Source: Thermoanaerobaculia bacterium (GTDB lineage: Bacteria > Acidobacteriota > Thermoanaerobaculia > Multivoradales > Multivoraceae). Taken from it: a stretch of 64,000 nucleotides of DNA. Position 1 is the stretch's first letter; each line of letters starts with the position of its first letter. Made by a program: the position numbers and the translations under genes. The stretch covers positions 1 to 64,000 of the forward strand of contig OY762911.1 of the NCBI GenBank assembly GCA_963666565.1, given 5' to 3'. Positions 35,950 to 47,961 of this stretch are shown piece after piece. The notes under the pieces are model-generated. The model was not told where the DNA came from, did not search any database, and was given only the letters and a program-made list of their open reading frames with translations.

Positions 35950-37806
35950 ATGAAGCGTAGCGCAGAGTCCGCCGCCGTTCTGCTCGCCGCCTTCGCCCTC
36001 GGCTGCACAGCCGGCAGCGACGCTCCGGCGCCCGGCGAAGGCGCGCAGCCCCCCAACATCGTCCTCGTCGTGACCGACGACCAGGGCTACGGCGACTTCG
36101 GCTTCGCCGGCAACCCGGTCCTCCAGACGCCGCACCTCGACGCCCTGGCCGCCCAGAGCGCCACCGTCGAGCGCTTCTACGTGAGCCCGGTCTGCACTCC
36201 GACCCGCGCCTCTCTCATGACGGGCCGCTACAACTACCGCACCCGCGCCATCGACACCTACATCGGCCGCGCGATGATGGAGCCCGAGGAGGTGACGATC
36301 GCAGAGTTGCTGCGGGACGCCGGCTACGCCACCGGCATCTTCGGCAAGTGGCACCTGGGCGACAACTACCCGCTGCGCGCCATGGACCAGGGCTTCGAGG
36401 AAAGCCTGGTTCACCGGGGCGGCGGGATCGGCCAGCCCTCCGACCCGCCCGGCGGCGAGGGCAAGTACACGGACGCGGTGCTCTTCAGGAACGGAAAGCG
36501 GGTGGAGACGACCGGCTACTGCACGGACGTCTACTTCGACGCCGCGTTCGACTTCATGGAACAGGCGGCCAGCGAGGGGCGGCCGTTCTTCGCCTACGTC
36601 CCGACGAACGCGCCCCACGGTCCGTTCCACGACGTGCCGGAAGAGCTGCTGAAGCGCTATCGGCAAGCGGACCTGCGCGCGGCGCTCCCGGATCCCGGCC
36701 AGGCCAGCGAGCAGGCGCTCGACCGGCTGGCCCGCAGCTACGCGATGATCGGCAACATCGACGACAACGTCGGACGGCTGACCGCAAGGCTCGAGGAGCT
36801 GGGTCTCGCGGACAACACGCTCGTCGTCTTCCTGGTCGACAACGGACCGGACCGCGACCGCTACAACGCGGGGCTCCGCGGCCGCAAGGGAACCGTGTTC
36901 GAGGGCGGCGTCCGGTCGCCCCTGCTGGCGCGCTGGCCGGGGCGGCTGCCGGCGGACGCGCCGCCCGTCGACCGGATCGCGGCCCACATCGACATCGCGC
37001 CGACCCTGCTCGACGCCGCCGGCGTCGAACCGCCCGCCGGGTTGCATCTGGACGGCCGCAGCCTGCTCGGCCTGCTCTCCGGCGAGGACGACGCCGCGGA
37101 CTGGCCGGACCGGGCCATCTACCTGCAGTTCCACCGCGGCAACGAACCGATCCCGCTCCACTCCTTCGCCGCCGTCGGCCAGCGCTACAAGCTGGTCCAC
37201 CCGTCCCCGCGCGGCGAGGGGGACTGGAACGGCGAACTGGCCCTCGAGCTCTACGACCTCGAGACCGACCCGGGCGAGAGCCGCAACCTGATCGCCGGCA
37301 CCCGCGTGGCGCATTCCGCCGGGACCGCGACCGCCGCCGCGAGCCCGCCGGCGGACTCGCCGGACGAGATGTCCGAGGTCGCGGCCGGGATGCGGAACGC
37401 CTACCTGGCGTGGTTCGAGGACGTGAGCTCCACCCGGCCGGACAACTACGCGCCGCCACGGATCGTCGTCGGCACGGACCGCGAACCGGTCACCGTACTC
37501 ACCCGCCAGGACTGGCGGCGGATCACCGACGACCAGGGCTGGCGGCCGACCTCGCGCGGCCGTTGGCTGCTGAGAGCCCTGGACGACGCGACGTTCGACA
37601 TCGAGGTGCGGCTCGTCGCCGGCTCCAGCGGTCCGGTCCTCCTGGAAGTCGACGATCGGAAACTCAGCCAGGACCTGAACCCGGATCGGCAGACCGCGAC
37701 GTTTGAAGAGGTCCCGGTCCCCGCTGGCGACTTCGGGCTCAGCGCCGCGGCCGGCGAAGGCGAGGAACAGCGAGGAGCGCATCAGGTAGTGCTGCGGCAG
37801 CGCTAG
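35950..37806 (+). CDS. Arylsulfatase (lipoprotein)
   Basis: Lipobox ALGC, PNIVLVVTDDQGYGD, CTPTRASLMTGRY, GKWHLG and NAPH. Confidence 0.93.
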   Translation: MKRSAESAAVLLAAFALGCTAGSDAPAPGEGAQPPNIVLVVTDDQGYGDFGFAGNPVLQTPHLDALAAQSATVERFYVSPVCTPTRASLMTGRYNYRTRAIDTYIGRAMMEPEEVTIAELLRDAGYATGIFGKWHLGDNYPLRAMDQGFEESLVHRGGGIGQPSDPPGGEGKYTDAVLFRNGKRVETTGYCTDVYFDAAFDFMEQAASEGRPFFAYVPTNAPHGPFHDVPEELLKRYRQADLRAALPDPGQASEQALDRLARSYAMIGNIDDNVGRLTARLEELGLADNTLVVFLVDNGPDRDRYNAGLRGRKGTVFEGGVRSPLLARWPGRLPADAPPVDRIAAHIDIAPTLLDAAGVEPPAGLHLDGRSLLGLLSGEDDAADWPDRAIYLQFHRGNEPIPLHSFAAVGQRYKLVHPSPRGEGDWNGELALELYDLETDPGESRNLIAGTRVAHSAGTATAAASPPADSPDEMSEVAAGMRNAYLAWFEDVSSTRPDNYAPPRIVVGTDREPVTVLTRQDWRRITDDQGWRPTSRGRWLLRALDDATFDIEVRLVAGSSGPVLLEVDDRKLSQDLNPDRQTATFEEVPVPAGDFGLSAAAGEGEEQRGAHQVVLRQR

Positions 37807-37839
37807 CGCCAGCCGCGGCTCTGCTAACCTCCGCGGCCA

Positions 37840-38217
37840 ATGCTGCGCCGGACCGGTTCGCCACTCGCCATCGTCAACGCTCTCGCGCTGACGCTCGCCA
37901 CCCTGCTCGCTGGAGCCTGGGACTCGAGCGGCCACGGCCACGGCCTGGCCGCGGCGAACGCCGCCTACTGCGCGGTAGATCACGAGGCCGAGGCCAGCGG
38001 CGCCGCCAGCCGGGCCGCGGTCAGTCAGGCCGCGGCGACGCACGATCATTCCTGCGTCGCCTGCAATCTGGGACGTTCCAAGATCGTCGAGGAGCGCAAG
38101 ACCTCGATCGCCGGACTCCTGGACCTCCCCTCGGCCGCGACGGGCTCGGAGGACGGGGGCTGCCCCACCAGCGGCGAGCGCTGGCGGCACACCGCTCGCG
38201 GGCCGCCCCTGGGCTGA
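37840..38217 (+). CDS. DUF2946/CruR-like leader protein 1 (signal segment, HDHSCVAC, C-terminal RGPP)
   Basis: Hydrophobic N-terminus, CxxC and ARGPPLG-stop; paralog at 44114-44506; directly upstream of a TonB receptor. Confidence 0.8.
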   Translation: MLRRTGSPLAIVNALALTLATLLAGAWDSSGHGHGLAAANAAYCAVDHEAEASGAASRAAVSQAAATHDHSCVACNLGRSKIVEERKTSIAGLLDLPSAATGSEDGGCPTSGERWRHTARGPPLG

Positions 38218-38449
38218 GTCGATCCGACTCCGCCCGCGCTGCACAGCGCGACGCGTCGGAGTCGTGAAAAGAAAGGTGAGCGCCCCTCGTCGGGGTGACC
38301 GCGACGACCCGTAGCGGTCAGCTCAAGCTGACGCATCCCGGTCGTCCAACGGCGCCGCCGGCGATTCGGTGCGATCCCACCGCCGCGGAATCCGCGGCCT
38401 GCGCTACGGCACTCTTCGACTCGGACTGAACGACCCAGGAACCACAACC
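38214..38449 (+). promoter_or_regulatory. Structured intergenic leader 1 (putative translational switch)
   Basis: Hairpins conserved with 44503-44801; CTGAGTCGA (38214-38222) complementary to TCGACTCGG (38416-38424). Confidence 0.55.
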
Positions 38450-41044
38450 ATGATCGCCAACCGCACAAAGGCCTCGAACTCCTATCCGCGGCGCCGGCAC
38501 CACCGGCGCCAGGCGGCGACGGGCGCCGTTCTCTGCGCCCTCGCCCTTCTTCTCATTCCAGCGACGGCCGGCGCCCAGGAAACCGGCTCCGTCGCCGGGT
38601 CCGTCGAAACGCACGGCGAGAGAATCGTGCTCGCCGTGGCGCGCATCCCCGCGCTCGGCATCAGCGCCGCGGTGTCCACGGACGGCACGTTCCGCTTCGA
38701 CGAAGTGCCGGCCGGCACGTATCTCGTCGTCGTCGACATTCCCGCCTTCGGCACGGCCAGCGAGACGGTCACCGTGGCGGGCGGCGACGAGGTGGATCTC
38801 CAGCTCGAAATGCGTCACGGAACGCACTTCGACGAGGTCGTGGTCACCGCGACCGGCGACCTGCGCCGCGCCTCCGAACTGGCGAATCCCGTCTCCGTGC
38901 TGTCCGGCACGGACCTCCAGTTGCGCCTCGGCGCCACGCTGGGCGAAACGCTGGAGAACGAACCCGGCGTGTACTCGACGGCGTTCACCCCCGGCGCCGG
39001 CCGGCCGATCATCCGCGGCCTGACGGGCGCACGTGTGCGCGTCATGGAAGGCGGACTCGACACCGGCGACGCCTCCACCGTCAGTGCGGACCACGCGGTG
39101 ACCTTCGAACCGGCGCACGCCGAGCAGATCGAGGTTCTGCGCGGCCCCGCCACGCTCCGCTTCGGGTCGGAGGCCATCGGCGGCGCCGTCAACATCGTCG
39201 ACGGCCGGATTCCGACCGAGAAGCCCGTCAGCGCGCTGAAGGGCACGATCGACCTTCGCGGCGGCACCAACGCCGACGAGCGGATGGGCGCCATCCATCT
39301 CGACGGCGGCGGCGGCGAATGGGCTTGGCACCTGGGCGCCGTCAGCCGGGAGACCGATCCGTACGAGATCCCCGGCTACGCCCGCGTCGAGGAGGAGCAC
39401 GACGATCACGACGAGGACCATGACGAAGACCACGACGAGGATCACGACGAGGACGAGGATCACGACGAGGACGAGGACCACGACGACGAGGACCATGACG
39501 AAGATCACGACGAGGATGACCACGACGAACACGAAGAAGAGAACACCTTCGGGATGGTCCCGAACACGGATCTGAAGACGGAGAGCGGCCGGTTCGGCTT
39601 CACCCGCTTCTTCGGCGATCGCGGCTCGATCGGCGTTTCGGTCAGCGGCTTCGACACGAACTACGGGATCCCGCCTGGCGGGCACGCTCATCACGAGCAC
39701 GACGATCACGACGACGAGGACCACGACGAGGACCACGACGACGAGGACCACGACGACGAAGATCACGACGACGAAGACCACGACGACGAAGACCACGACG
39801 ACGAAGACCACGACGACGAAGACCACGACGACGAAGACCACGACGACGAAGATCACGACGACCACGAGGAAGAGGAAGTCCCGATCCGCATCGACATGCA
39901 GCAGCGCCGCGTCGACCTGCGCGCCGAGGCCCTGCCGGCGTCCGGCGCCTTTCAGAAGATCGAGGTCCGGATGGCGGGAACCGACTACGAGCACGTCGAG
40001 CTCGAAGGTCCCAACGTCGGCACGACCTTCTTCAACGAGTACTTCGAGACCCGGCTCGAGATGTTCCAGCGCGAGCGCGGCCGCAGTCGCGGCTCCGTCG
40101 GTCTCCAGTACTCGGACCGCAACCTGGAGGCCTTCGGCGAGGAGGCCTTCGTTCCTCCGACGCAGTCCGAGGGATTGGCGGTCTTCACCTCCCAGGAAGT
40201 CGAGGCCGGCGCCGTTCGCTGGCAGTTCGGGGCCCGCTTCGAGCAACTCGATCAGAACCCGGCGACTACCAGGGATACCTCGCACGACGGGGTCTCCGCC
40301 TCCGCCGGCCTCGTCTGGGACGCGGCCGACGACTGGGTGCTCGGCGTGTCGCTGGCTCGTTCGGTCCGCCTTCCGTCAGCGGAAGAGCTCTTCTCGGACG
40401 GCGTGCATGTCGCCACGCAGAGCTACGAGGTCGGCGACCCGAACCTCGACAACGAGGTCGGCACCGGCATCGACGTGTCGCTGCGCAAGACGGAGGGACC
40501 GCTGACCGGCGAACTGACGATCTTCCGCCAGAGCTTCAGCGACTTCATCTACCAGGCCTTCACCGGCGAAGAGGAGGACGGTTTCTCGGTGCTCCAGCAC
40601 AGCCAGGCCGACGCCACCACCGAAGGCGCCGAACTCCGGCTCCGGCTCGAGCTGCTCGACCGCAACGACCATCACCTGCACCTCCAGGCGATCGCCGACA
40701 CCGTCGACGCCGAGCTGGACGCGGGTGGCAACCTGCCGCGGATTCCGCCAATGAGCTTCGGCGCCGGCCTCCACTACCACGGCCACCATTGGCGCGCCGC
40801 GGTGGAGGGTCGCTGGTTCGACGACCAGAACGACGTCGCGGAACTGGAGACCCCGACCGAGGGCTACACTCTGGTGAACGCCCACGTCGGGCGGCGCTTC
40901 ATCGTCGGCAACCAGATCCTCGACGTGCTCCTGCGGGGCCGCAACCTGACGGACGAGGAGGCGCGCGTGCATACCTCGTTCCTGAAGAACTTCGCGGCCC
41001 TGCCCGGCAGGGACATCACCCTGTCGGCCCGGTTCTGGTTCTGA
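38450..41044 (+). CDS. TonB-dependent receptor, ZnuD-like, with His/Asp-rich loops
   Basis: Signal peptide, carboxypeptidase-like N domain, EVVVTA, RPIIRG, SADHAV, IEVLRGPATL.FGS.AIGGAVN and C-terminal F. Confidence 0.92.
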   Translation: MIANRTKASNSYPRRRHHRRQAATGAVLCALALLLIPATAGAQETGSVAGSVETHGERIVLAVARIPALGISAAVSTDGTFRFDEVPAGTYLVVVDIPAFGTASETVTVAGGDEVDLQLEMRHGTHFDEVVVTATGDLRRASELANPVSVLSGTDLQLRLGATLGETLENEPGVYSTAFTPGAGRPIIRGLTGARVRVMEGGLDTGDASTVSADHAVTFEPAHAEQIEVLRGPATLRFGSEAIGGAVNIVDGRIPTEKPVSALKGTIDLRGGTNADERMGAIHLDGGGGEWAWHLGAVSRETDPYEIPGYARVEEEHDDHDEDHDEDHDEDHDEDEDHDEDEDHDDEDHDEDHDEDDHDEHEEENTFGMVPNTDLKTESGRFGFTRFFGDRGSIGVSVSGFDTNYGIPPGGHAHHEHDDHDDEDHDEDHDDEDHDDEDHDDEDHDDEDHDDEDHDDEDHDDEDHDDEDHDDHEEEEVPIRIDMQQRRVDLRAEALPASGAFQKIEVRMAGTDYEHVELEGPNVGTTFFNEYFETRLEMFQRERGRSRGSVGLQYSDRNLEAFGEEAFVPPTQSEGLAVFTSQEVEAGAVRWQFGARFEQLDQNPATTRDTSHDGVSASAGLVWDAADDWVLGVSLARSVRLPSAEELFSDGVHVATQSYEVGDPNLDNEVGTGIDVSLRKTEGPLTGELTIFRQSFSDFIYQAFTGEEEDGFSVLQHSQADATTEGAELRLRLELLDRNDHHLHLQAIADTVDAELDAGGNLPRIPPMSFGAGLHYHGHHWRAAVEGRWFDDQNDVAELETPTEGYTLVNAHVGRRFIVGNQILDVLLRGRNLTDEEARVHTSFLKNFAALPGRDITLSARFWF
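39731..39850 (+). repeat. Coding 15-bp tandem repeat (DHDDE x8)
   Basis: GA(C/T)CACGACGACGA(A/G) eight times; five consecutive identical units at 39776-39850. Confidence 0.9.
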
Positions 41045-41066
41045 GTCGGGCAAGGAACTCAACGCC

Positions 41067-42323
41067 TTGCTCCCCTGCCGGGAAAAGACCACGCAGCGCT
41101 CCCTGACGTCCCGTTTCCGCGAGGCGTCTCTTCCCGCGGCGCTCTTCCTGTCTGTCTGCCTGATTGCCTGCGGGTCCGGCGTGCCCGTCGATCCGGGATC
41201 CGTCGAAGGCGCGACGCCCGCGGCGTCCTACGCGGAGACCTTCAGCGTCGTCGAACGGGACGGCTACCGCGTTGTCGACATCGAAGCGTCCGTCGTCGCC
41301 TGGGGCGGATCGGCGGGCGGACCGCCGCAACGCGTCCGCCTGGTGCTGGTCCCAAAGGGCGGAACGCCGCCAGCGCTGACGGGAGAACTGGCAGGCGCCT
41401 CGTTGATCCGAACGCCCGTCGAGCGGATCGCCGTCAACGATCAACCGCATGAGGCCATGCTGCGCGCACTCGGAGTGGAGAGCCGGATCGTCGCGGTCGG
41501 CGGGCGCGACAGCTACGACGACGGCCTGCGCCGCAAGGCCCGGTCACGTGAGATCCAGCAGATCGGCTACGCGTGGCACATGCCGCCTACGCTCGATGCG
41601 CTGGTGGCGTCGCGGCCCGAAGTGCTGATCGCGCGCATGGCCGACCTCACGCACACGCAGCACATGGAGCGCGTCGAGTCGCTCGGCATCGCGGTCGTGC
41701 CGACCTTCATCGATGCGGAGCCGCACTACATGGGGCGTGTCGAGTGGATCCGTCTGATGGGTCTGCTGACCGGTACGGAGGCGGAAGCCGATGAGTTCGT
41801 CCAGATGGTCGCGCAAGAGGTCGACCGCCTGAAGGCCATTGCGAACGGGCATCCCCGACGATCGGTTCTCTGGGCCTGGTACCGGAGCGCGGGCAATCGC
41901 TGGGCCGTCACGCAGCGCAACGCCGATGCGGCCCTCATTCGCGACGCCAACGCGGAGCTTGTCATGGGCGCCGAGGACGATCCGGAGCTCGACGCGTTCT
42001 CCGATCTCTCCACGGAACGGCTGCTGCGGGACGGTACGGATGCCGACTGCTGGATGATCCGCGACCCGCTCTCCGGAGTGTTCGACGATCAGGCCGTGCT
42101 TTCTCGCTTCAAGGCCTATCGGGACGATTGCGTGTTCTGGGAGTCCGGCAAGCGCCATCCCACCGCCGATTCGTGGGAGCTGTGGGAGATGGGCACCATC
42201 CGGCCGGACTGGCAACTGGCCGACATCATGAAGATGATGCATCCGGCACTGCGTGACGGCGAGTGGCGTTACCTCGCGCCGGAGACGTGGGAAGCGGACC
42301 ATGCCCTCGCGGGTCGGCACTAG
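41067..42323 (+). CDS. ABC transporter substrate-binding lipoprotein (BtuF/Fe-chelate class III type)
   Basis: LIAC lipobox, RTPVERIAV, E.HYMGRVEWIRLMGLL and RPDWQLADI. Confidence 0.85.
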   Translation: MLPCREKTTQRSLTSRFREASLPAALFLSVCLIACGSGVPVDPGSVEGATPAASYAETFSVVERDGYRVVDIEASVVAWGGSAGGPPQRVRLVLVPKGGTPPALTGELAGASLIRTPVERIAVNDQPHEAMLRALGVESRIVAVGGRDSYDDGLRRKARSREIQQIGYAWHMPPTLDALVASRPEVLIARMADLTHTQHMERVESLGIAVVPTFIDAEPHYMGRVEWIRLMGLLTGTEAEADEFVQMVAQEVDRLKAIANGHPRRSVLWAWYRSAGNRWAVTQRNADAALIRDANAELVMGAEDDPELDAFSDLSTERLLRDGTDADCWMIRDPLSGVFDDQAVLSRFKAYRDDCVFWESGKRHPTADSWELWEMGTIRPDWQLADIMKMMHPALRDGEWRYLAPETWEADHALAGRH

Positions 42324-43332
42324 CGTCGTCGTTCTGGTCGGCGCGCTCGCCGCGCTCTCGCTGCTCACCCTCACCTATGGGCAGATCGCGCTGCCACTGG
42401 CCGACACGGTCGGCGCGCTCACCGGAACGCTGTCGACCGACCTTGCGCGCCAGATCGTCCTCGACATTCGCCTTCCGCGAGTCGCCGCCGCGATCATCGC
42501 CGGCGCCGCGCTCGGCATGGCGGGAGTGCTGATGCAGGCCCTCTTCCGGAACCCGGTGGCCGACGGCTGGTCTCTCGGCCTGCTCGCGGGCGGCCAGCTC
42601 GGGGTCGCACTCACGGTGACCGCGGCGGCTTTTGCGGGTCCCGCGGCCGTGTCCTTCCTGACCTTCTTCGAGGGCCCCAGCATCACGCTGGCGGCCGCCG
42701 CCGGCGTAGCGGTTGCGGCATTCGCCATGCTCGCGCTCGGCCGCCGCGTCGGCGCCATCACGCTGCTCGTCATCGGCCTGATGCTCGGCTTCACCTCCCA
42801 GGGCCTCACCAGCGTTCTTCTTCACTTCGCCGCCCGCGCCGGCGGCCGGATCTATGGCGGATGGCAGGATGCGAGCTTCGCCGGCGTCGCCCCTTCGGCG
42901 CTGGCGTGGCTCTCGCTGCCGATCCTCGTCGGCGCCTGCGTCGCCGTCGCGACGGCCAAGCCGCTCAGTTCGCTGCTTCTCGGCGAGGCCTACGCGCGCA
43001 GCCTCGGGGTCAAGGTGACGTCGCTCCGACATGCCGTCCTCGCGGCTACCGTACTCCTGGTGGCGCCGGTCGTGGCCTTCTGCGGTCCGGTCAGCTTCGT
43101 CGGCCTCATCGCACCGCACTTCGCGCGCGCACTGGCCGGGACGGCGCGAATCCTCCCGCTCCTGCCGCTTGCCGCGCTTGGCGGTGCGCTGCTTGCCCTT
43201 GCCGGCGACGCCATCGTTCATGCGCCGTGGGAACAGCACTTCCTGCACCTGAACGCGATCCTCGCCATCGTCGGCGCCCCGGTCGTGATTCTCATCCTGA
43301 TCCTCTCACCGGCCGTGAGACAGTGGCGCTGA
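42301..43332 (+). CDS. FecCD/BtuC-type ABC permease
   Basis: IRLPR, G.LMQ.LFRNP.A, LGE.YARSLG and CGPVSFVGLIAPH. Confidence 0.92.
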   Translation: MPSRVGTSVVVLVGALAALSLLTLTYGQIALPLADTVGALTGTLSTDLARQIVLDIRLPRVAAAIIAGAALGMAGVLMQALFRNPVADGWSLGLLAGGQLGVALTVTAAAFAGPAAVSFLTFFEGPSITLAAAAGVAVAAFAMLALGRRVGAITLLVIGLMLGFTSQGLTSVLLHFAARAGGRIYGGWQDASFAGVAPSALAWLSLPILVGACVAVATAKPLSSLLLGEAYARSLGVKVTSLRHAVLAATVLLVAPVVAFCGPVSFVGLIAPHFARALAGTARILPLLPLAALGGALLALAGDAIVHAPWEQHFLHLNAILAIVGAPVVILILILSPAVRQWR

Positions 43333-44117
43333 TGCTGGATCTGCGATCCCTCGCCGTGGGCTACCGCAACACACGGAACATCGTTCTTTCCGGCATCGAC
43401 CTGGCGGCCGCGCCTGGCGACTTCATCTGCATCCTCGGCCGCAACGGGTCCGGGAAGTCGACGCTCATGCGCACGATCGCGGCGCTGCAAACCTCGCTCG
43501 ACGGCGCCGTGCTGCTCGACGGCGAGGACGTCGCCTCCATGCGTCCGGCGACCCGCGCGCGCCGGATCGCGGTCGTGCTGACGGAGCGGCAGTTCAATCC
43601 GGGCCTGCGCGTCGAGGACGTCGTCGCACTCGCCCGGCAGCCCTTCACGGGTTGGCAGGGTGGACTGGCGGACGACGACCGGGCGGCGGTCGCCGACGCC
43701 GTCGCGACAGCCGGCGTCGGGCCGTTCCTGCGCCGTTTCTTCAGCGATCTCAGCGACGGCGAGCGACAGCGCGTGATGATCGCGCGGGCGCTCGCACAAA
43801 CCCCGCGCCTCATGGTCCTCGACGAGATCACGGCCTTCCTCGACCTTCCAAGCCGGGTCGAGATCACGGCCCTCCTGCGCTCCCAGGCGAAGCAGAAAGG
43901 GCAGGTCATCCTGCTCTCAAGCCACGACCTCGACCTTTCGCTTCAGCTCGCCGACAGCGTCTGGCTGCTCGACGGCACCGGCGGCTTTTCGGTCGGCACG
44001 CCGGCGGCCCTGAGCGAGAGTGGCGGGCTCGGCCGTGCCTTCGACACGGAGGCGATCCGGTTCTCGCCCTCCCACGGGCGGTTCGAGATCCGGATGTCCC
44101 CATCCGCGAATCCATGA
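43332..44117 (+). CDS. ABC ATPase (FecE/BtuD-type)
   Basis: GRNGSGKST, LSDGERQR, LDE and SHD. Confidence 0.92.
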   Translation: MLDLRSLAVGYRNTRNIVLSGIDLAAAPGDFICILGRNGSGKSTLMRTIAALQTSLDGAVLLDGEDVASMRPATRARRIAVVLTERQFNPGLRVEDVVALARQPFTGWQGGLADDDRAAVADAVATAGVGPFLRRFFSDLSDGERQRVMIARALAQTPRLMVLDEITAFLDLPSRVEITALLRSQAKQKGQVILLSSHDLDLSLQLADSVWLLDGTGGFSVGTPAALSESGGLGRAFDTEAIRFSPSHGRFEIRMSPSANP

Positions 44118-44506
44118 TAAAAGGCCCCTCCGTGCCGCACCGATCCCACTCGCCGCTCGTCATCGTCAACGCACTCGCGCTGACGGTCGCGACGCTCGTC
44201 GCCGCCTGGGACGCGGGCTGCCACGACCATGACGAGCCGGCGGCAAGGGACGCCCGGTACGCGATCAACCAGGAAGCCGCGGCCTCCGGGGCCGCGAACC
44301 CCGCCAGCCTCGCCAGCGCCGAGGCGCCGCACGAACACTCCTGCGTCGCGTGCAGGATCGGATGCTCGAAGTCGGCCGAGATCGCCAGGAACTCCGCTTC
44401 CAGGCCGCTCGACCTCGCTTCGGCCGCGGCAAGGCCCGAGAACGACGGCAGCGCCCGACGCGGCGCGCCCAGGCTGCAGGCTGCTCGCGGTCCGCCGCTG
44501 GGCTGA
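44114..44506 (+). CDS. DUF2946/CruR-like leader protein 2 (HEHSCVAC, C-terminal RGPP); start 44114 or GTG 44132
   Basis: Clear paralog of 37840-38217 (SPL.IVNALALT.ATL, H.HSCVAC, LDL, ARGPPLG-stop). Confidence 0.8.
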   Translation: MIKGPSVPHRSHSPLVIVNALALTVATLVAAWDAGCHDHDEPAARDARYAINQEAAASGAANPASLASAEAPHEHSCVACRIGCSKSAEIARNSASRPLDLASAAARPENDGSARRGAPRLQAARGPPLG

Positions 44507-44801
44507 GTCGAACAGCGGCGCCGACCCGCGCGGCAACGCGCGGCGTCGGAGCCTCCAGAAAGCAAACCAGGCGTCGCCCGCCCCACTTCGGGGCGATGGC
44601 GACGACGCCATCGCGGTCAGCCGTTGCTGACCCGAACGGAGTCGCAGCATCGCGCGACCGACGAGTTCGGCACGCCGCAAGCGCTGCGAATCCTCAGCCA
44701 GCGCCACACAAGCTCCCTTGACCCGGAGGGCCTTCGATCCGAAGGGCCTTCGACTCGGAGGGACCCTCGACTCGGACCGAACCATGCAGGAACTCAAGAC
44801 A
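44503..44801 (+). promoter_or_regulatory. Structured intergenic leader 2
   Basis: Same hairpin order as leader 1; CTGAGTCGA (44503-44511) complementary to TCGACTCGG at 44750-44758 and 44767-44775. Confidence 0.55.
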
Positions 44802-47348
44802 ATGCTCGCTACCTTCACCAAGCTCTCGAACTCCAATCCACGGCGCCGGCCCCGCTGGCGCCAAGCAGCGACGGGCGCCGCTCTCTGCGCCCTTGCCCTC
44901 ATCCTCCCCCCGCCGCCGGCCAACGGTCAGGCGACGGGATCCGTCGCCGGAACGGTCACGAGCCCCGGCGAAGCCGGCATCTCGCTCGCCGTCGCCCGTC
45001 TCTCCGAGTTGTCCCTCAGCGCCCCGGTGGCCGCGGACGGGACGTTTCGGTTCGACGCCGTGCCTCCCGGCACGTATCTCCTGGTCGTCGACATTCCGTC
45101 GGTCGGCCTGACCAGCCAGCCGGTCACCGTCTCGGCCGGCCAGCAGACGACCCTCGAACTGGAACACGATCACTTCACCCACTTCGACGAGATCGTCGTC
45201 ACCGGCTCCGGCGATCTCCGGAACGAGTCCGAGCTGCCGAACGCGATCTCCGTGCTGGGCGGCGCCGACCTGCAACTGCGCCTGGGGGCGACGCTGGGCG
45301 AGACCCTGGCGGGGGAACCGGGCCTGTCCTCCACCGCGTTCGTTCCGGGAGCGGCGCGGCCGGTCATCCGCGGCCTTTCGAGCGCGCGCGTTCGTGTGCT
45401 CAACGGCGGCATGGGAACCGGCGACGTTTCCGTGGAGAGCGCCGACCACGCCGTGACGACCGACCCGATCCTGGCGGAGCAGGTCGAAGTGCTGAGAGGT
45501 CCGGCCACGCTCCGCTACGGCTCGGGCGCCATCGGCGGCGCCGTGAACGTCGTCGACGGTCGCATTCCAGCGAACCGGGCGGCAAGGACCGTTGGCGGCA
45601 GGATCGACCTGGTCGGCGGTTCGGTGGCCGACGAGGAGACGGGCGCGGTCCAACTCAACGGAGGCGGCGGCGAATGGGCCTGGCACATCGGGGCCGTCAG
45701 CCGGAAGACCGATCCGTACGAGATCCCCGGCTACGCCCGCCTCGAGGAGGAGCACGACGACCACGACGACCACGGCCACGAGGACGAGGACCACGAAAAC
45801 GACGACCACGACGACCACGAAGAGGAGAACAGCTTCGGCATCGTCCCGAACACGGACCTGAGGACCGAAAGCGGCCGGGTCGGCGTCACGCGCTTCTTCG
45901 GCAACCGCGGTTTCCTGGGCGTCTCGTTCAGCGGTTTCAGCACCGACTACGGCATTCCGCCAGGCGCACACAGCCACGCAGGGCACGATCACGGCGGAGA
46001 CGGCCACGACGAGGACGGGGATCACCACGACGAGGACGGGGATCACCACGACGAGGACGAGGACCATCACGACGAGGATGACGACCACCACGGCGACGAC
46101 GAGGACCACCACGACGAGGATGACGACCACCACGACGAGGATGACGACCACCACGACGAAGAGGAAGAGCACCATGACGACGGCGACATTCGCCTCGACA
46201 TGAAGCAGCAGCGCTTCGACCTCAGAGCCAGCGTCAACCTGCTCGCACCCGCCTTCGAGAGGCTCGAACTGCAAACGTCCGGAACGGACTACGAGCACGT
46301 CGAGTTCGAAAGCGGCCACACCGGCGTCCTCTACACGAACGACCTCTTCGAGACCCGGGTCGAGATGTTCCAACGCGAGCGGGGCGCCAGCCGGGGCAGC
46401 GTCGGCTTGCAGTACGTGGACCGCGATCTCGCCGCGGTCGGCGCCGAGGCCTTCATCCCCCCGACCCGCTCGAACACCTGGGCGGCTTTCACCTCCCAGG
46501 AGATTCAGAGGGGATCGGTTCGCTGGCAGTTCGGCGCCCGCTTCGAACAGGCCGAGCACGACCCGGCAAACGGACCGGCCTGGTCCGGCGACGGCGTTTC
46601 CGCCTCGACCGGCATCGTCTGGACGGCCGGAGACGCGTGGAACCTCGGCGTGTCGGCCTCGCGCTCAGTTCGCCTTCCCAGTCCGGGCGAGCTGTTCTCC
46701 CACGGTGCTCACATACCCACCCGGACCTTCGACATCGGCGATCCCGACCTGGACGCGGAAGTCGGCGCCGGCCTGGACATCACGCTTCGCAGGGAGGAGG
46801 GCGCCGTCCAGGGCAAGTTGACCCTGTTCCGGCAGGACTTCCAGGACTTCATCTACCACGCGTTCACCGGCACGGAGCTCTCTGGCTTCCCGGTCACCGT
46901 CTACAGTCAGGCCGACGCGACGATGACCGGCGCGGAGCTCCACGCGCGGATAGAGCTCGCGGAGTGGAACGGGCACGACCTGCACATGGAGATCGTGGGC
47001 GACACGGTCGACGCGGAACTGGACGAAGGCGGCAATCTGCCGAGAATTCCGCCGCTGAGCCTGGGCGCCGGCGTCCACTACCACGGCCACGACTGGCGGG
47101 CAGCGGTCGAGTGGCGGTGGGTCGACGACCAGAACGATGTCGCCGAGCAGGAGACGCCGACCGACGGCTACGCCATGCTGAACGCGCACATCGGCCGGCG
47201 CTTTACGGCGAACGACCAGATCTTCGACCTGCTCCTGCGGGGGCGGAACCTGACCGACGAGGAAGCCCGGGTGCACACGTCCCTGCTCAAGACGTTCGCG
47301 CCCCTGCCCGGGAGGGACATCACGCTGTCGGCGCGGTTCTGGTTCTGA
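44802..47348 (+). CDS. TonB-dependent receptor, ZnuD-like paralog 2
   Basis: Colinear with receptor 1, including both His-rich loops and the identical C-terminus LPGRDITLSARFWF; start chosen by homology and AGGA RBS. Confidence 0.92.
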   Translation: MLATFTKLSNSNPRRRPRWRQAATGAALCALALILPPPPANGQATGSVAGTVTSPGEAGISLAVARLSELSLSAPVAADGTFRFDAVPPGTYLLVVDIPSVGLTSQPVTVSAGQQTTLELEHDHFTHFDEIVVTGSGDLRNESELPNAISVLGGADLQLRLGATLGETLAGEPGLSSTAFVPGAARPVIRGLSSARVRVLNGGMGTGDVSVESADHAVTTDPILAEQVEVLRGPATLRYGSGAIGGAVNVVDGRIPANRAARTVGGRIDLVGGSVADEETGAVQLNGGGGEWAWHIGAVSRKTDPYEIPGYARLEEEHDDHDDHGHEDEDHENDDHDDHEEENSFGIVPNTDLRTESGRVGVTRFFGNRGFLGVSFSGFSTDYGIPPGAHSHAGHDHGGDGHDEDGDHHDEDGDHHDEDEDHHDEDDDHHGDDEDHHDEDDDHHDEDDDHHDEEEEHHDDGDIRLDMKQQRFDLRASVNLLAPAFERLELQTSGTDYEHVEFESGHTGVLYTNDLFETRVEMFQRERGASRGSVGLQYVDRDLAAVGAEAFIPPTRSNTWAAFTSQEIQRGSVRWQFGARFEQAEHDPANGPAWSGDGVSASTGIVWTAGDAWNLGVSASRSVRLPSPGELFSHGAHIPTRTFDIGDPDLDAEVGAGLDITLRREEGAVQGKLTLFRQDFQDFIYHAFTGTELSGFPVTVYSQADATMTGAELHARIELAEWNGHDLHMEIVGDTVDAELDEGGNLPRIPPLSLGAGVHYHGHDWRAAVEWRWVDDQNDVAEQETPTDGYAMLNAHIGRRFTANDQIFDLLLRGRNLTDEEARVHTSLLKTFAPLPGRDITLSARFWF

Positions 47349-47404: not shown

Positions 47405-47481
47405 GTCCCCATCGTCTAGCCAGGTCAGGACTCCAGCCTTTCAAGCTGGCAACACGGGTTCGAATCCCGTTGGGGACGCCA
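47405..47481 (+). tRNA. trnE: tRNA-Glu(TTC)
   Basis: Acceptor stem GTCCCCA/TGGGGAC, anticodon arm CCAGC-CTTTCAA-GCTGG, T arm ACGGG-TTCGAAT-CCCGT, encoded CCA. Confidence 0.95.
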
Positions 47482-47492
47482 TCGCGCCGGAT

Positions 47493-47961
47493 GGCGCGAT
47501 GGCGGCCACAACGGGTTCGGTCGACGCTGCTCGCCTACGGCTCGCCGCTCTGGAACGTATCCCGTTGGGGACGAAGCCCTGCCGGTCGGCGCGATGGCGG
47601 CCACAACGGGTTCGGTCGACGCTGCTCGCCTACGGCTCGCCGCTCTGGAACGTATCCCGTTGGGGACGAAGCCCTGCCGGTCGGCGCGATGGCGGCCACA
47701 ACGGGTTCGGTCGACGCTGCTCGCCTGCGGCTCGCCGCTCTGGAACGAATCCCGTTCAACGCGAAACGTCAACACGCCGGATCGGCGCGATGGCGGCCAC
47801 AACGGGTTCGGTCGACGCTGCTCGCCTCCGGCTCGCCGCTCTGGAACGAATCCCGAGCGAGACGTCAACCCGCCGACTGGCGCGATGGCGGCCACAACGG
47901 GTTCGGTCGACGCTGCTCGCCTCCGGCTCGCCGCTCTGGAACGTATCCCGTTGGGGACGCC
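47493..47961 (+). repeat. tRNA-linked tandem array: 5 x 72-nt conserved unit with 23-29-nt linkers
   Basis: Units start at 47493, 47588, 47683, 47784 and 47879; each carries ACGGGTTCG...CG(T/A)ATCCCG of the tRNA T arm. Confidence 0.92.

Follow-up and report, generated by a model that had tools for sequence, protein, structure and literature searches.

Pairing between the leader stop codon and the start region of two ZnuD-like receptor genes in a Thermoanaerobaculia genome

Two genes for ZnuD-like TonB-dependent receptors in a 64,000-nucleotide (nt) stretch of a Thermoanaerobaculia bacterium (assembly GCA_963666565.1, contig OY762911.1, positions 1 to 64,000; this whole stretch is called the window) are preceded by small upstream open reading frames (uORFs) that end in Arg-Gly-Pro-Pro (RGPP) shortly before the stop codon. 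How could a ribosome at the end of such a leader act on a receptor gene that begins 232 or 295 nt further downstream on the same strand? An earlier note on this DNA had proposed a conserved long-range pairing between the leader stop codon and the receptor start region. The explanation that we favour, with confidence somewhat short of even, sees in this pairing the RNA half of an arrest-peptide switch of the CruR/CutF type, with a leader of the form CXXC...RGPP-X-X-stop ahead of a ZnuD-like receptor. The sequence from the leader stop would fold back over a structured spacer of 190-250 nt and pair beside the receptor translation start. The helix would be held open by a stalled or terminating ribosome and would close once the leader end is vacated. 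In related families the Shine-Dalgarno (SD) sequence itself would serve as the 3' arm and the helix as a long-range anti-SD clamp, coupling receptor translation to ribosome occupancy. In the genus of the window the same helix would have survived with a C-G to G-C swap and with its 3' arm 12 nt upstream of a newer SD; there it cannot hide the SD, and its effect would be limited at most to closing the spacer and to occupying positions -34..-26, on the upstream border of the zone where the ribosome lands.

Leaders, spacers and helix in the two copies

Direct reading of the sequence agreed with the earlier note on every arm, stop codon and AGGA, including an extra 3' arm in copy 2 (Table 1). Base by base, the arms CTGAGTCGA and TCGACTCGG form nine of nine pairs, one of them U-G. 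The 5' arm starts one base ahead of the leader stop codon and the 3' arm ends exactly 12 nt before the AGGA in both copies, over an arm-to-arm distance of 193 nt in copy 1 and 255 nt in copy 2. Only in copy 1 is the helix extended in the predicted fold by CCUGGG (codons P-L-G) pairing with CCCAGG, and this extension reaches the SD.

The pairing was compared with shuffled sequences as the best ungapped helix between a stop segment (stop-9..+15) and a start segment (start-45..+3), a score that replaced RNAduplex with internal loops, which was too permissive for GC-rich RNA. With 300 dinucleotide shuffles of the start segment, p = 0.023 was obtained for copy 1 and p = 0.007 for copy 2. Of the segments that tile the spacer and the final 200 nt of the leader, two of 58 in copy 1 and none of 68 in copy 2 paired with the start segment as well as the stop segment did. 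Spacer 1 folds with a minimum free energy (MFE) of -122.9 kcal/mol (z = -4.4; 0 of 200 dinucleotide shuffles as good) and spacer 2 with -152.7 kcal/mol (z = -4.2; 0 of 100), and the helix is present in the MFE structures of both. Chance complementarity, or an inverted repeat acting at the DNA level (an operator, say, or the two ends of a small mobile element), appears very improbable. Nine pairs are short and GC-rich spacers yield many helices (null mean 13-15 against 22 observed), but these per-copy p values speak against chance, as does the use of the same position in 40 of 74 spacers of the genus and, with other sequences, in nine of 23 distant loci; arms 190-255 bp apart are unlike an operator. 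The module occurs only twice in the 4.79-Mb genome (one contig), both times at this gene junction, and is therefore not a dispersed repeat; the idea of a mobile element or repeat was rejected on this number.

Table 1. Features of the two modules in the window, and arms of the helices at nine distant loci of the order
Feature	Position	Strand	Sequence or remark
Leader uORF 1	37840..38217	+	125 amino acids; signal-like N-terminus, HDHSCVAC (CXXC), end ARGPPLG before the stop
RGPP codons, uORF 1	38197..38208	+	CGC GGG CCG CCC
5' arm, copy 1	38214-38222	+	CTGAGTCGA; contains TGA 38215-17
Hairpin 1	38226..38263	+	outer CUCCG/CGGAG, inner GCGC stem; RNAalifold on 55 spacers and covariation counts
Hairpin 2	38282..38296	+	CCCC/GGGG; RNAalifold and covariation (helix 4)
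Stem around hairpin 3	38301..38345	+	GCGAC/GUCGU; RNAalifold and covariation
Hairpin 3	38316-38333	+	GGUCAGC-loop-GCUGAC; within stem GCGAC/GUCGU
Hairpins 4 and 5	38357..38404	+	CCGGC/UCGG; CGCGG-AAU-CCGCG inside outer stem; helices 8, 9, 11 (RNAalifold and covariation)
3' arm, copy 1	38416-38424	+	TCGACTCGG; -34..-26 from receptor ATG
Receptor 1 start region	38437..38452	+	AGGA 38437-40, ATG 38450-52
ZnuD-like TonB-dependent receptor 1	38450..41044	+	Pfam Plug, barrel, CarboxypepD_reg
Leader uORF 2	44114..44506	+	130 amino acids; HEHSCVAC, end ARGPPLG before the stop
5' arm, copy 2	44503-44511	+	CTGAGTCGA; contains TGA 44504-06
3' arm, copy 2	44767-44775	+	TCGACTCGG; extra copy 44750-44758
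Receptor 2 start region	AGGA 44788-91, ATG 44802	+	
ZnuD-like TonB-dependent receptor 2	ATG 44802, to 47348	+	Pfam Plug, barrel, CarboxypepD_reg
Arms at L028			5' GCUGAAUCCUU / 3' AAGGAUUCAGU; 11 pairs
Arms at L084			5' GAUCCUUUU / 3' AAAAGGAUC; 9 pairs
Arms at L094			5' AGCUGAGUCC / 3' GGACUCAGCU; 10 pairs
Arms at L096			5' GCCUGAGUCCU / 3' AGGACUCAGGU; 11 pairs
Arms at L105			5' GCUGAGUCCU / 3' AGGACUCAGU; 10 pairs
Arms at L097			5' CGAUCUCCUG / 3' CAGGAGAUCG; 10 pairs
Arms at L099			5' GAGUUUCC / 3' GGGAACUC; 8 pairs
Arms at L103			5' UCUCUCCU / 3' AGGAGAGA; 8 pairs
Arms at L029			5' AGUCCUUU / 3' AAAGGAUU; 8 pairs

The enclosed spacers share 78% column identity in a pairwise alignment, in which the hairpin order given by the earlier note is seen again: a CGCG stem, CGCCCC/GGGG(T/C)G, and GTCAGC-N4-GCTGAC with different loops (TCAA vs CGTT). 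An Rfam scan of 37000-46000 (E <= 10) returned three matches, all with E >= 2 and below the gathering score, none of them in the spacers. Copy 2 (44720-44775) and some orthologues (also L047 and L053) carry a local expansion of 2-3 CCTTCGAC(T/C)CGGAGGG-like units, by which the 3' arm is duplicated and further small hairpins arise. The extra 3' arm sits among CCTTCGA(C/T)(T/C)CGGA(G/A)GG-like units, and its helix probability was 0.00 in all four folding contexts. Copy 1 alone has two further possible pairings, of the 5' arm with neighbouring bases (GAGUCG-AUC-CGACUC, 38218-38259) and of the 3' arm with the 3' strand of hairpin 1, which together give a set of four mutually exclusive segments reminiscent of an attenuator. 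Such a 1-2-3-4 arrangement was dropped because the local hairpin is missing in most homologues.

By their sequence the small ORFs are CruR/CutF-like arrest-peptide leaders. DUF2946 leaders are reported as a known class of arrest-peptide uORFs (PMC9426467; 10.1101/2022.11.11.516240), RGPP as the strongest arrest motif, and RGPP/RAPP uORFs ahead of TonB receptors as widespread (PMC12992588). The N-termini of both leaders are hydrophobic and signal-like, of the SPLAIVNALALTLATLLAGAW type as judged from the sequence. Among ten diverse leaders (alignment A2) the motif H-x-H-x-C-x-x-C and RGPP are invariant; C72, C75 and H70 are invariant also in 17 distant members, and the RGPP end is found in 23 of 23 distant leaders. 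RGPP followed by exactly two residues and the stop was present in 76/76 copies of the genus and 19/23 distant copies. Downstream of 62/76 leaders in the genus there is a receptor homologue, as there is, in the chosen frame, for 18/23 distant ones, which L087 joins once its start is corrected by homology. Four of the ten A2 members match PF11162/DUF2946 at E <= 0.05, and the search of the whole source genome with this family gave no match. Arrest at RGPP, metal sensing and a regulatory output would be expected at the window locus by membership in this class. RGPP/RAPP leaders also stand ahead of non-receptor genes (L032, L033/L035-L037, L159, L163), among them genes for a Tat-signal-like protein, an exported protein without assigned identity, an ABC ATPase and an FAD-type oxidoreductase.

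The helix and the spacer among relatives

An order-wide profile search matched 64 of 300 genomes. In total, 99 distinct leader-to-next-gene spacers were taken, identical spacers being counted once; five leader copies without a downstream start under the start-codon rule were left out, as was later one spacer with a masked N. For other genera and families of the order 23 distant loci were analysed, after removal of L085 (cut by a contig end) and L102 (no RGPP ORF); the weak matches G156 and G285 lie outside the set. The earlier note had made its proposal depend on conservation of the pairing in other genomes. An ungapped helix of at least 8 pairs between the stop segment and the SD region was found in 9/23 distant loci, formed by differing sequences (Table 1), and seven of the 23 reached p < 0.05 against shuffles. 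Own partners scored higher than swapped ones (mean helix score 17.13 vs 14.92 +/- 0.60, p = 0.0002; with a wider start segment p = 0.0014), and the nine helices of at least 8 pairs compare with 4.7 expected by swapping (p = 0.009). When the spacer and the final 200 nt of the leader were tiled with 39-69 segments per locus, no other segment paired as well with the start region as the stop segment in 7/23 loci, and in 8/23 the stop segment ranked within the top 10%.

Compensatory differences occur between helix types, a G-C to A-U change in L028 and a one-pair deletion in both arms in L084; the helix appears to covary at the level of the order. The common distant type is CUGAGUCC/GGACUCAG, that of the genus CUGAGUCGA/UCGACUCGG. 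They differ at the sixth base after the T of the stop, where C-G has been exchanged for G-C; this exchange keeps the pair and turns the GGA of the old SD into CGA; the present SD of the genus, CCAGGAAC, lies 12 nt further on. We infer that the window helix is the homologue of an SD clamp, displaced off the SD. For several of the related families the case for a long-range anti-SD clamp opened by stalling is credible and convincing.

Wider draws added five further relatives, which were judged by eye. Profile A2 matched 10 of 401 genomes of a draw from the phylum, with only G386 outside the order. In a draw from the class, profile A4 matched 44 of 401; four weak matches within ORFs of 600-730 amino acids were set aside, and there remained G734 (uORF-like, outside the order) and G064, G186 and G037, new within the order. 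At one of the five loci (L162) a 12-pair helix with two single bulges covers the SD and the start. Another (L163), a RAPP leader outside the order and ahead of a non-receptor gene, has 6 pairs on the SD, and a third (L161), with a 5-residue tail, has 6 pairs from the last leader codons. Profile scans of genome contigs returned the same genus and one weak deltaproteobacterial match, those of metagenome contigs one weak 16-residue match, which was not used.

Within the genus, homologous leaders were present in 23/24 genomes of a first draw and 38/41 of the order-wide search, many genomes having 2-5 copies. The 74 distinct spacers of the genus form alignment A3. For the covariation check on homologous spacers that the earlier note had suggested, the inner hairpins gave a clear answer: the 50 local spacer pairs had 135 cells with changes in both partners, where shuffling gave 51.7 +/- 8.2 (0/500 as high), and a covariation score of 0.150 against 0.107 (0/500), falling to 0.04-0.05 when partners were slid. 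At pair 298/330 of helix 6, in the region of hairpin 3 and its GCGAC/GUCGU stem, GC occurs 31 times, AU 16 and GU 15 times. Given this strong covariation the spacer is a genuine structured RNA. The RNAalifold consensus of 55 genus spacers includes the long-range helix; on the full 74-row A3, too gappy an alignment, no consensus pairs were returned. The realigned 55-row subset leaves out the 19 most divergent or indel-rich rows (L013, L017, L021, L023, L026, L027, L033, L035-L038, L045, L048, L106, L109-L112, L116). In one relative (L078, G201:C226) a (CTAG)n microsatellite has expanded in the loop of hairpin 3 while the GGUCAGC/GCUGACC stem is kept; to judge by this sequence, the loop tolerates large insertions.

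Ribosome position, start accessibility and the alternatives

The downstream edge of the ribosome was set by the position of its helicase. It was taken to lie at about +11 to +15, with the toeprint position from PMC12992588 and PMC10951233, which report stalling with Pro1 in the P site and Pro2 in the A site, CruR included. The P-site proline codon of leader 1 is at 38203-05, and the 5' arm starts at 38214, i.e., at +11 from the first base of this codon. With Pro1 in the P site the leading edge would therefore reach 1-5 nt into the 5' arm. The arm would be covered in full by a ribosome in termination. A tail of invariantly two codons puts the stop at the ribosome edge in nearly all copies, the strongest hint that stall site and helix start are tuned to each other. 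Opening of the helix by the ribosome would follow from this geometry. In the folding model, each RNA began 30 nt ahead of the stop, extended over the first 21 nt of the next gene and was folded either free or with everything up to P-site +15 unpaired. In the distant loci, predicted start accessibility averaged 0.38 in the free RNA and 0.46 with this mask, the largest gain being +0.31. In the window, the unpaired probability of -16..+3 went from 0.62 to 0.70 in copy 1 and from 0.70 to 0.68 in copy 2.

Against a stall-operated helix weigh a number of results. At genus depth, none of 651 cells of the nine long-range pairs changed on both sides, and the share of paired cells, 87.7%, equals that with shuffled partners (87.5 +/- 0.2%; 114 of 500 shuffles as high). 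All nine pairs are intact in 29 of the 74 spacers; 40 have a run of at least 8 and 30 a run of 6 or fewer, and at least ten different uncompensated arm variants occur (e.g., TTGAGCCGA/TCCACTCGG, CTGAACCGA/TCGACTCGA, CTGAGT-GA). Within the window, the word conserved in the earlier note refers to two paralogues of a single genome; in the genus, a conserved pairing backed by covariation is not supported, and only the 40 spacers named keep the long run. As far as the alignment tells, the helix at this depth is explained by conservation of both arms. The note was right that the ribosome binding site is outside the helix. The 3' arm lacks the SD in both window copies, and masking the 5' arm left the genus mean of -16..+3 at 0.64, as in the free RNA (delta 0.00 +/- 0.08, n=75), so that the receptor start is predicted to be open in either state. 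Its claim that a ribosome stalled at RGPP covers the 5' strand stands as to the arrest-type uORF and the ribosome edge, which would reach the arm; the predicted cover is partial, 38214-38218 or 1-5 of the 9 nt. In the ensemble, the probability of the helix in four flank contexts was 0.98/0.71/0.32/0.78 for copy 1 and 0.87/0.01/0.17/0.47 for copy 2; it hinges in these models on the amount of flanking RNA folded and drops to 0.01-0.3 in some wider contexts. Among the distant loci, 14/23 had no convincing helix between stop and SD, other segments pair better with the SD in L093, L095 and L098, and L094, L096 and L105 are not independent, as they share arms. Distant start codons were set by rule, with manual fall-backs for L087, L096, L099 and L101, and two of the five further relatives (L159, L160) gave no convincing helix. 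For the leader class, uORF 1 scored 18.3 bits with PF11162/DUF2946 against a cut-off of 23.7, and uORF 2 had no match.

It is a real possibility, though not one that we would expect to hold, that the helix is a relic without function in the genus. Its arms would be kept for reasons of their own, with a complementarity inherited from an SD-masking ancestor: the bases after the stop may serve the termination or arrest context, and the 3' arm is part of the highly conserved receptor leader block TTCGACTCGGACTGAACGACCCAGGAAC, a block more conserved than the leader protein. The lack of compensatory changes, pairing at the shuffled expectation, and the unchanged start accessibility are what a relic would give, as is the decay of the helix in 34/74 spacers by many independent-looking routes. 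Set against this, the stop segment outranks all others as partner of the start segment in 36/75 genus loci and is among the best 10% in 44/75. Some one-sided changes keep the pair (five cells with C-to-U, giving G-U; five with G-to-A, giving U-A), the pair altered by the C-G to G-C swap was kept after the SD function was lost, and the stop stays invariantly two codons past PP. The window helix is real, but it lies away from the SD, shows no covariation in the genus and is decaying among close relatives; its function is uncertain, and it may be a remnant.

An RNA-level role away from ribosome binding is a further alternative. By analogy with CruR, control in the genus of the window probably runs via arrest and Rho or polarity. 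That the helix itself gates Rho or RNA decay appears improbable: the closed helix would tie up part of a C-rich, weakly structured stretch, and its opening, or an untranslated receptor, would expose a site for Rho loading or cleavage. Over 38340-38600 the GC skew lies between -0.12 and -0.28, over 44760-44860 between -0.30 and -0.35, and G+C is locally lowered to 0.55-0.59. By its composition this C-rich, G-poor stretch from the 3' arm into the receptor codons would be the kind of RNA used by Rho. Scans of 37600-38600 for sigma-70 promoters and for intrinsic terminators returned none of either, the latter in keeping with Rho gating, and for CruR a Rho-dependent terminator is reported within the 162-nt intergenic region (PMC9426467). 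Against gating by the helix stand the 9 nt of the arm in a bubble of more than 150 nt, the position of this C>G bubble downstream of the spacer, whereas in CruR it begins inside the uORF, and the missing covariation at genus level, which counts here likewise.

Known systems, receptors and gene neighbourhood

In rpmI-rplT of the Escherichia coli IF3-L35-L20 operon and in MS2 coat-replicase, a distant upstream coding segment pairs with the downstream start and is opened by translating ribosomes, without an arrest peptide and without a fixed geometry to a stall site. The switch proposed here also resembles SecM-secA, MifM-yidC2 and VemP-secDF2, where an arrested ribosome near the end of the upstream ORF disrupts a helix that hides the next ribosome binding site. 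Those are local stem-loops that sense secretion force, whereas the helix considered here is long-range, the signal is likely a metal and the SD is unmasked in the genus. RGPP/RAPP is assigned to the same arrest-core family as these switches (PMC12992588). CutF of R. capsulatus is reported to stall and to melt a stem-loop that hides the cutO SD (10.1101/2022.11.11.516240; 10.1101/2025.02.05.636593). In both systems the leader is small and Sec-signal-like, carries a Cys motif and has its PP stall motif at the C-terminus. Both also have an anti-SD strand that starts where the leader ORF ends and that the ribosome opens, or would open in the loci studied here; as in cutO, the 3' strand is the SD in 9/23 distant loci. 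In contrast to CutF-cutO, the strands are here 105-270 nt apart and enclose several covarying hairpins, the downstream gene encodes an uptake receptor instead of a multicopper oxidase, and the 3' strand in the window misses the SD by 12 nt.

For CruR-bfrG of Bordetella pertussis, a DUF2946 uORF with CXXC and RAPP, copper is reported to relieve the arrest, which leads to Rho-dependent termination in the 162-nt intergenic region (PMC9426467). The order of leader, long GC-rich spacer and TonB-dependent receptor is shared, as are CXXC and R(A/G)PP near the stop, and both are uptake systems expected to be off when the metal is plentiful. The differences are a 2-residue tail after RGPP here and 3 residues in CruR, a DUF2946 cut-off that is not reached, and a ZnuD-like receptor with His/Asp-rich inserts, for which reason the metal may not be copper. 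A long-range pairing of stop and start is not described for CruR in the article text, supplementary folds aside (PMC9426467), and no long-range clamp spanning 100-300 nt was found in the parts of the literature on DUF2946/CruR/CutF arrest leaders that were covered, again supplementary predicted folds aside.

Two mechanisms are known, Rho attenuation (CruR) and a local stem-loop that hides the SD (CutF), of which the latter has been regarded as incompatible with long spacers. The CruR paper judges the long spacer to preclude translational coupling (PMC9426467), the CutF paper expects unfolding of the stem-loop only with short spacers (10.1101/2022.11.11.516240). The loci of the Acidobacteriota analysed here have a mutable long-range helix that starts at the predicted leading edge of the stalled ribosome and, in several families, ends on the SD. 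RGPP/RAPP uORFs ahead of TonB-dependent receptors are reported across Gram-negative phyla, and the same 2025 survey poses as a question for the future how such uORFs regulate the downstream genes (PMC12992588). As a tentative and rather unlikely generalization, these leaders might act by a long-range anti-SD clamp across a folded spacer of 100-300 nt: arrest under metal limitation would unmask the start, release would mask it again and hand the RNA to Rho, and the genus of the window would be a derived case with its SD moved out of the clamp. Such a general clamp, if true, would contradict the expectation that long spacers preclude stem-loop unfolding and would supply the missing effector step for a widespread class of uORFs.

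The best NCBIfam match of both receptors is ZnuD (NF038289), with 351 bits (E = 1.8e-104) for receptor 1 and 364 bits (E = 1e-108) for receptor 2; since these scores are far below the curated cut-off of 950, the receptors are named ZnuD-like only. Each contains two very long low-complexity inserts rich in His, Asp and Glu (39380-39580 and 39700-39900 in receptor 1, 45840-45930 and 46000-46200 in receptor 2), with runs such as HDDEDHDDEDHD that stem from imperfect codon repeats. This composition suggests divalent-metal capture loops, far longer than usual. Between the two modules are genes for a Peripla_BP_2 protein, an FecCD permease and an ABC ATPase. The ATG of uORF 2 overlaps the TGA of this ATPase gene (ATGA, 44114-44117), and therefore uORF1, receptor 1, binding protein, permease, ATPase, uORF2 and receptor 2 may form a single transcription unit with a second, internal leader. 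Downstream of receptor 2 lies a tRNA-Glu(UUC) gene (47405-47481), whose 3' end runs into a tandem array of a 95-nt unit (47464-47959, 5.2 copies, 88% matches); these units may be repeated tRNA-derived segments.

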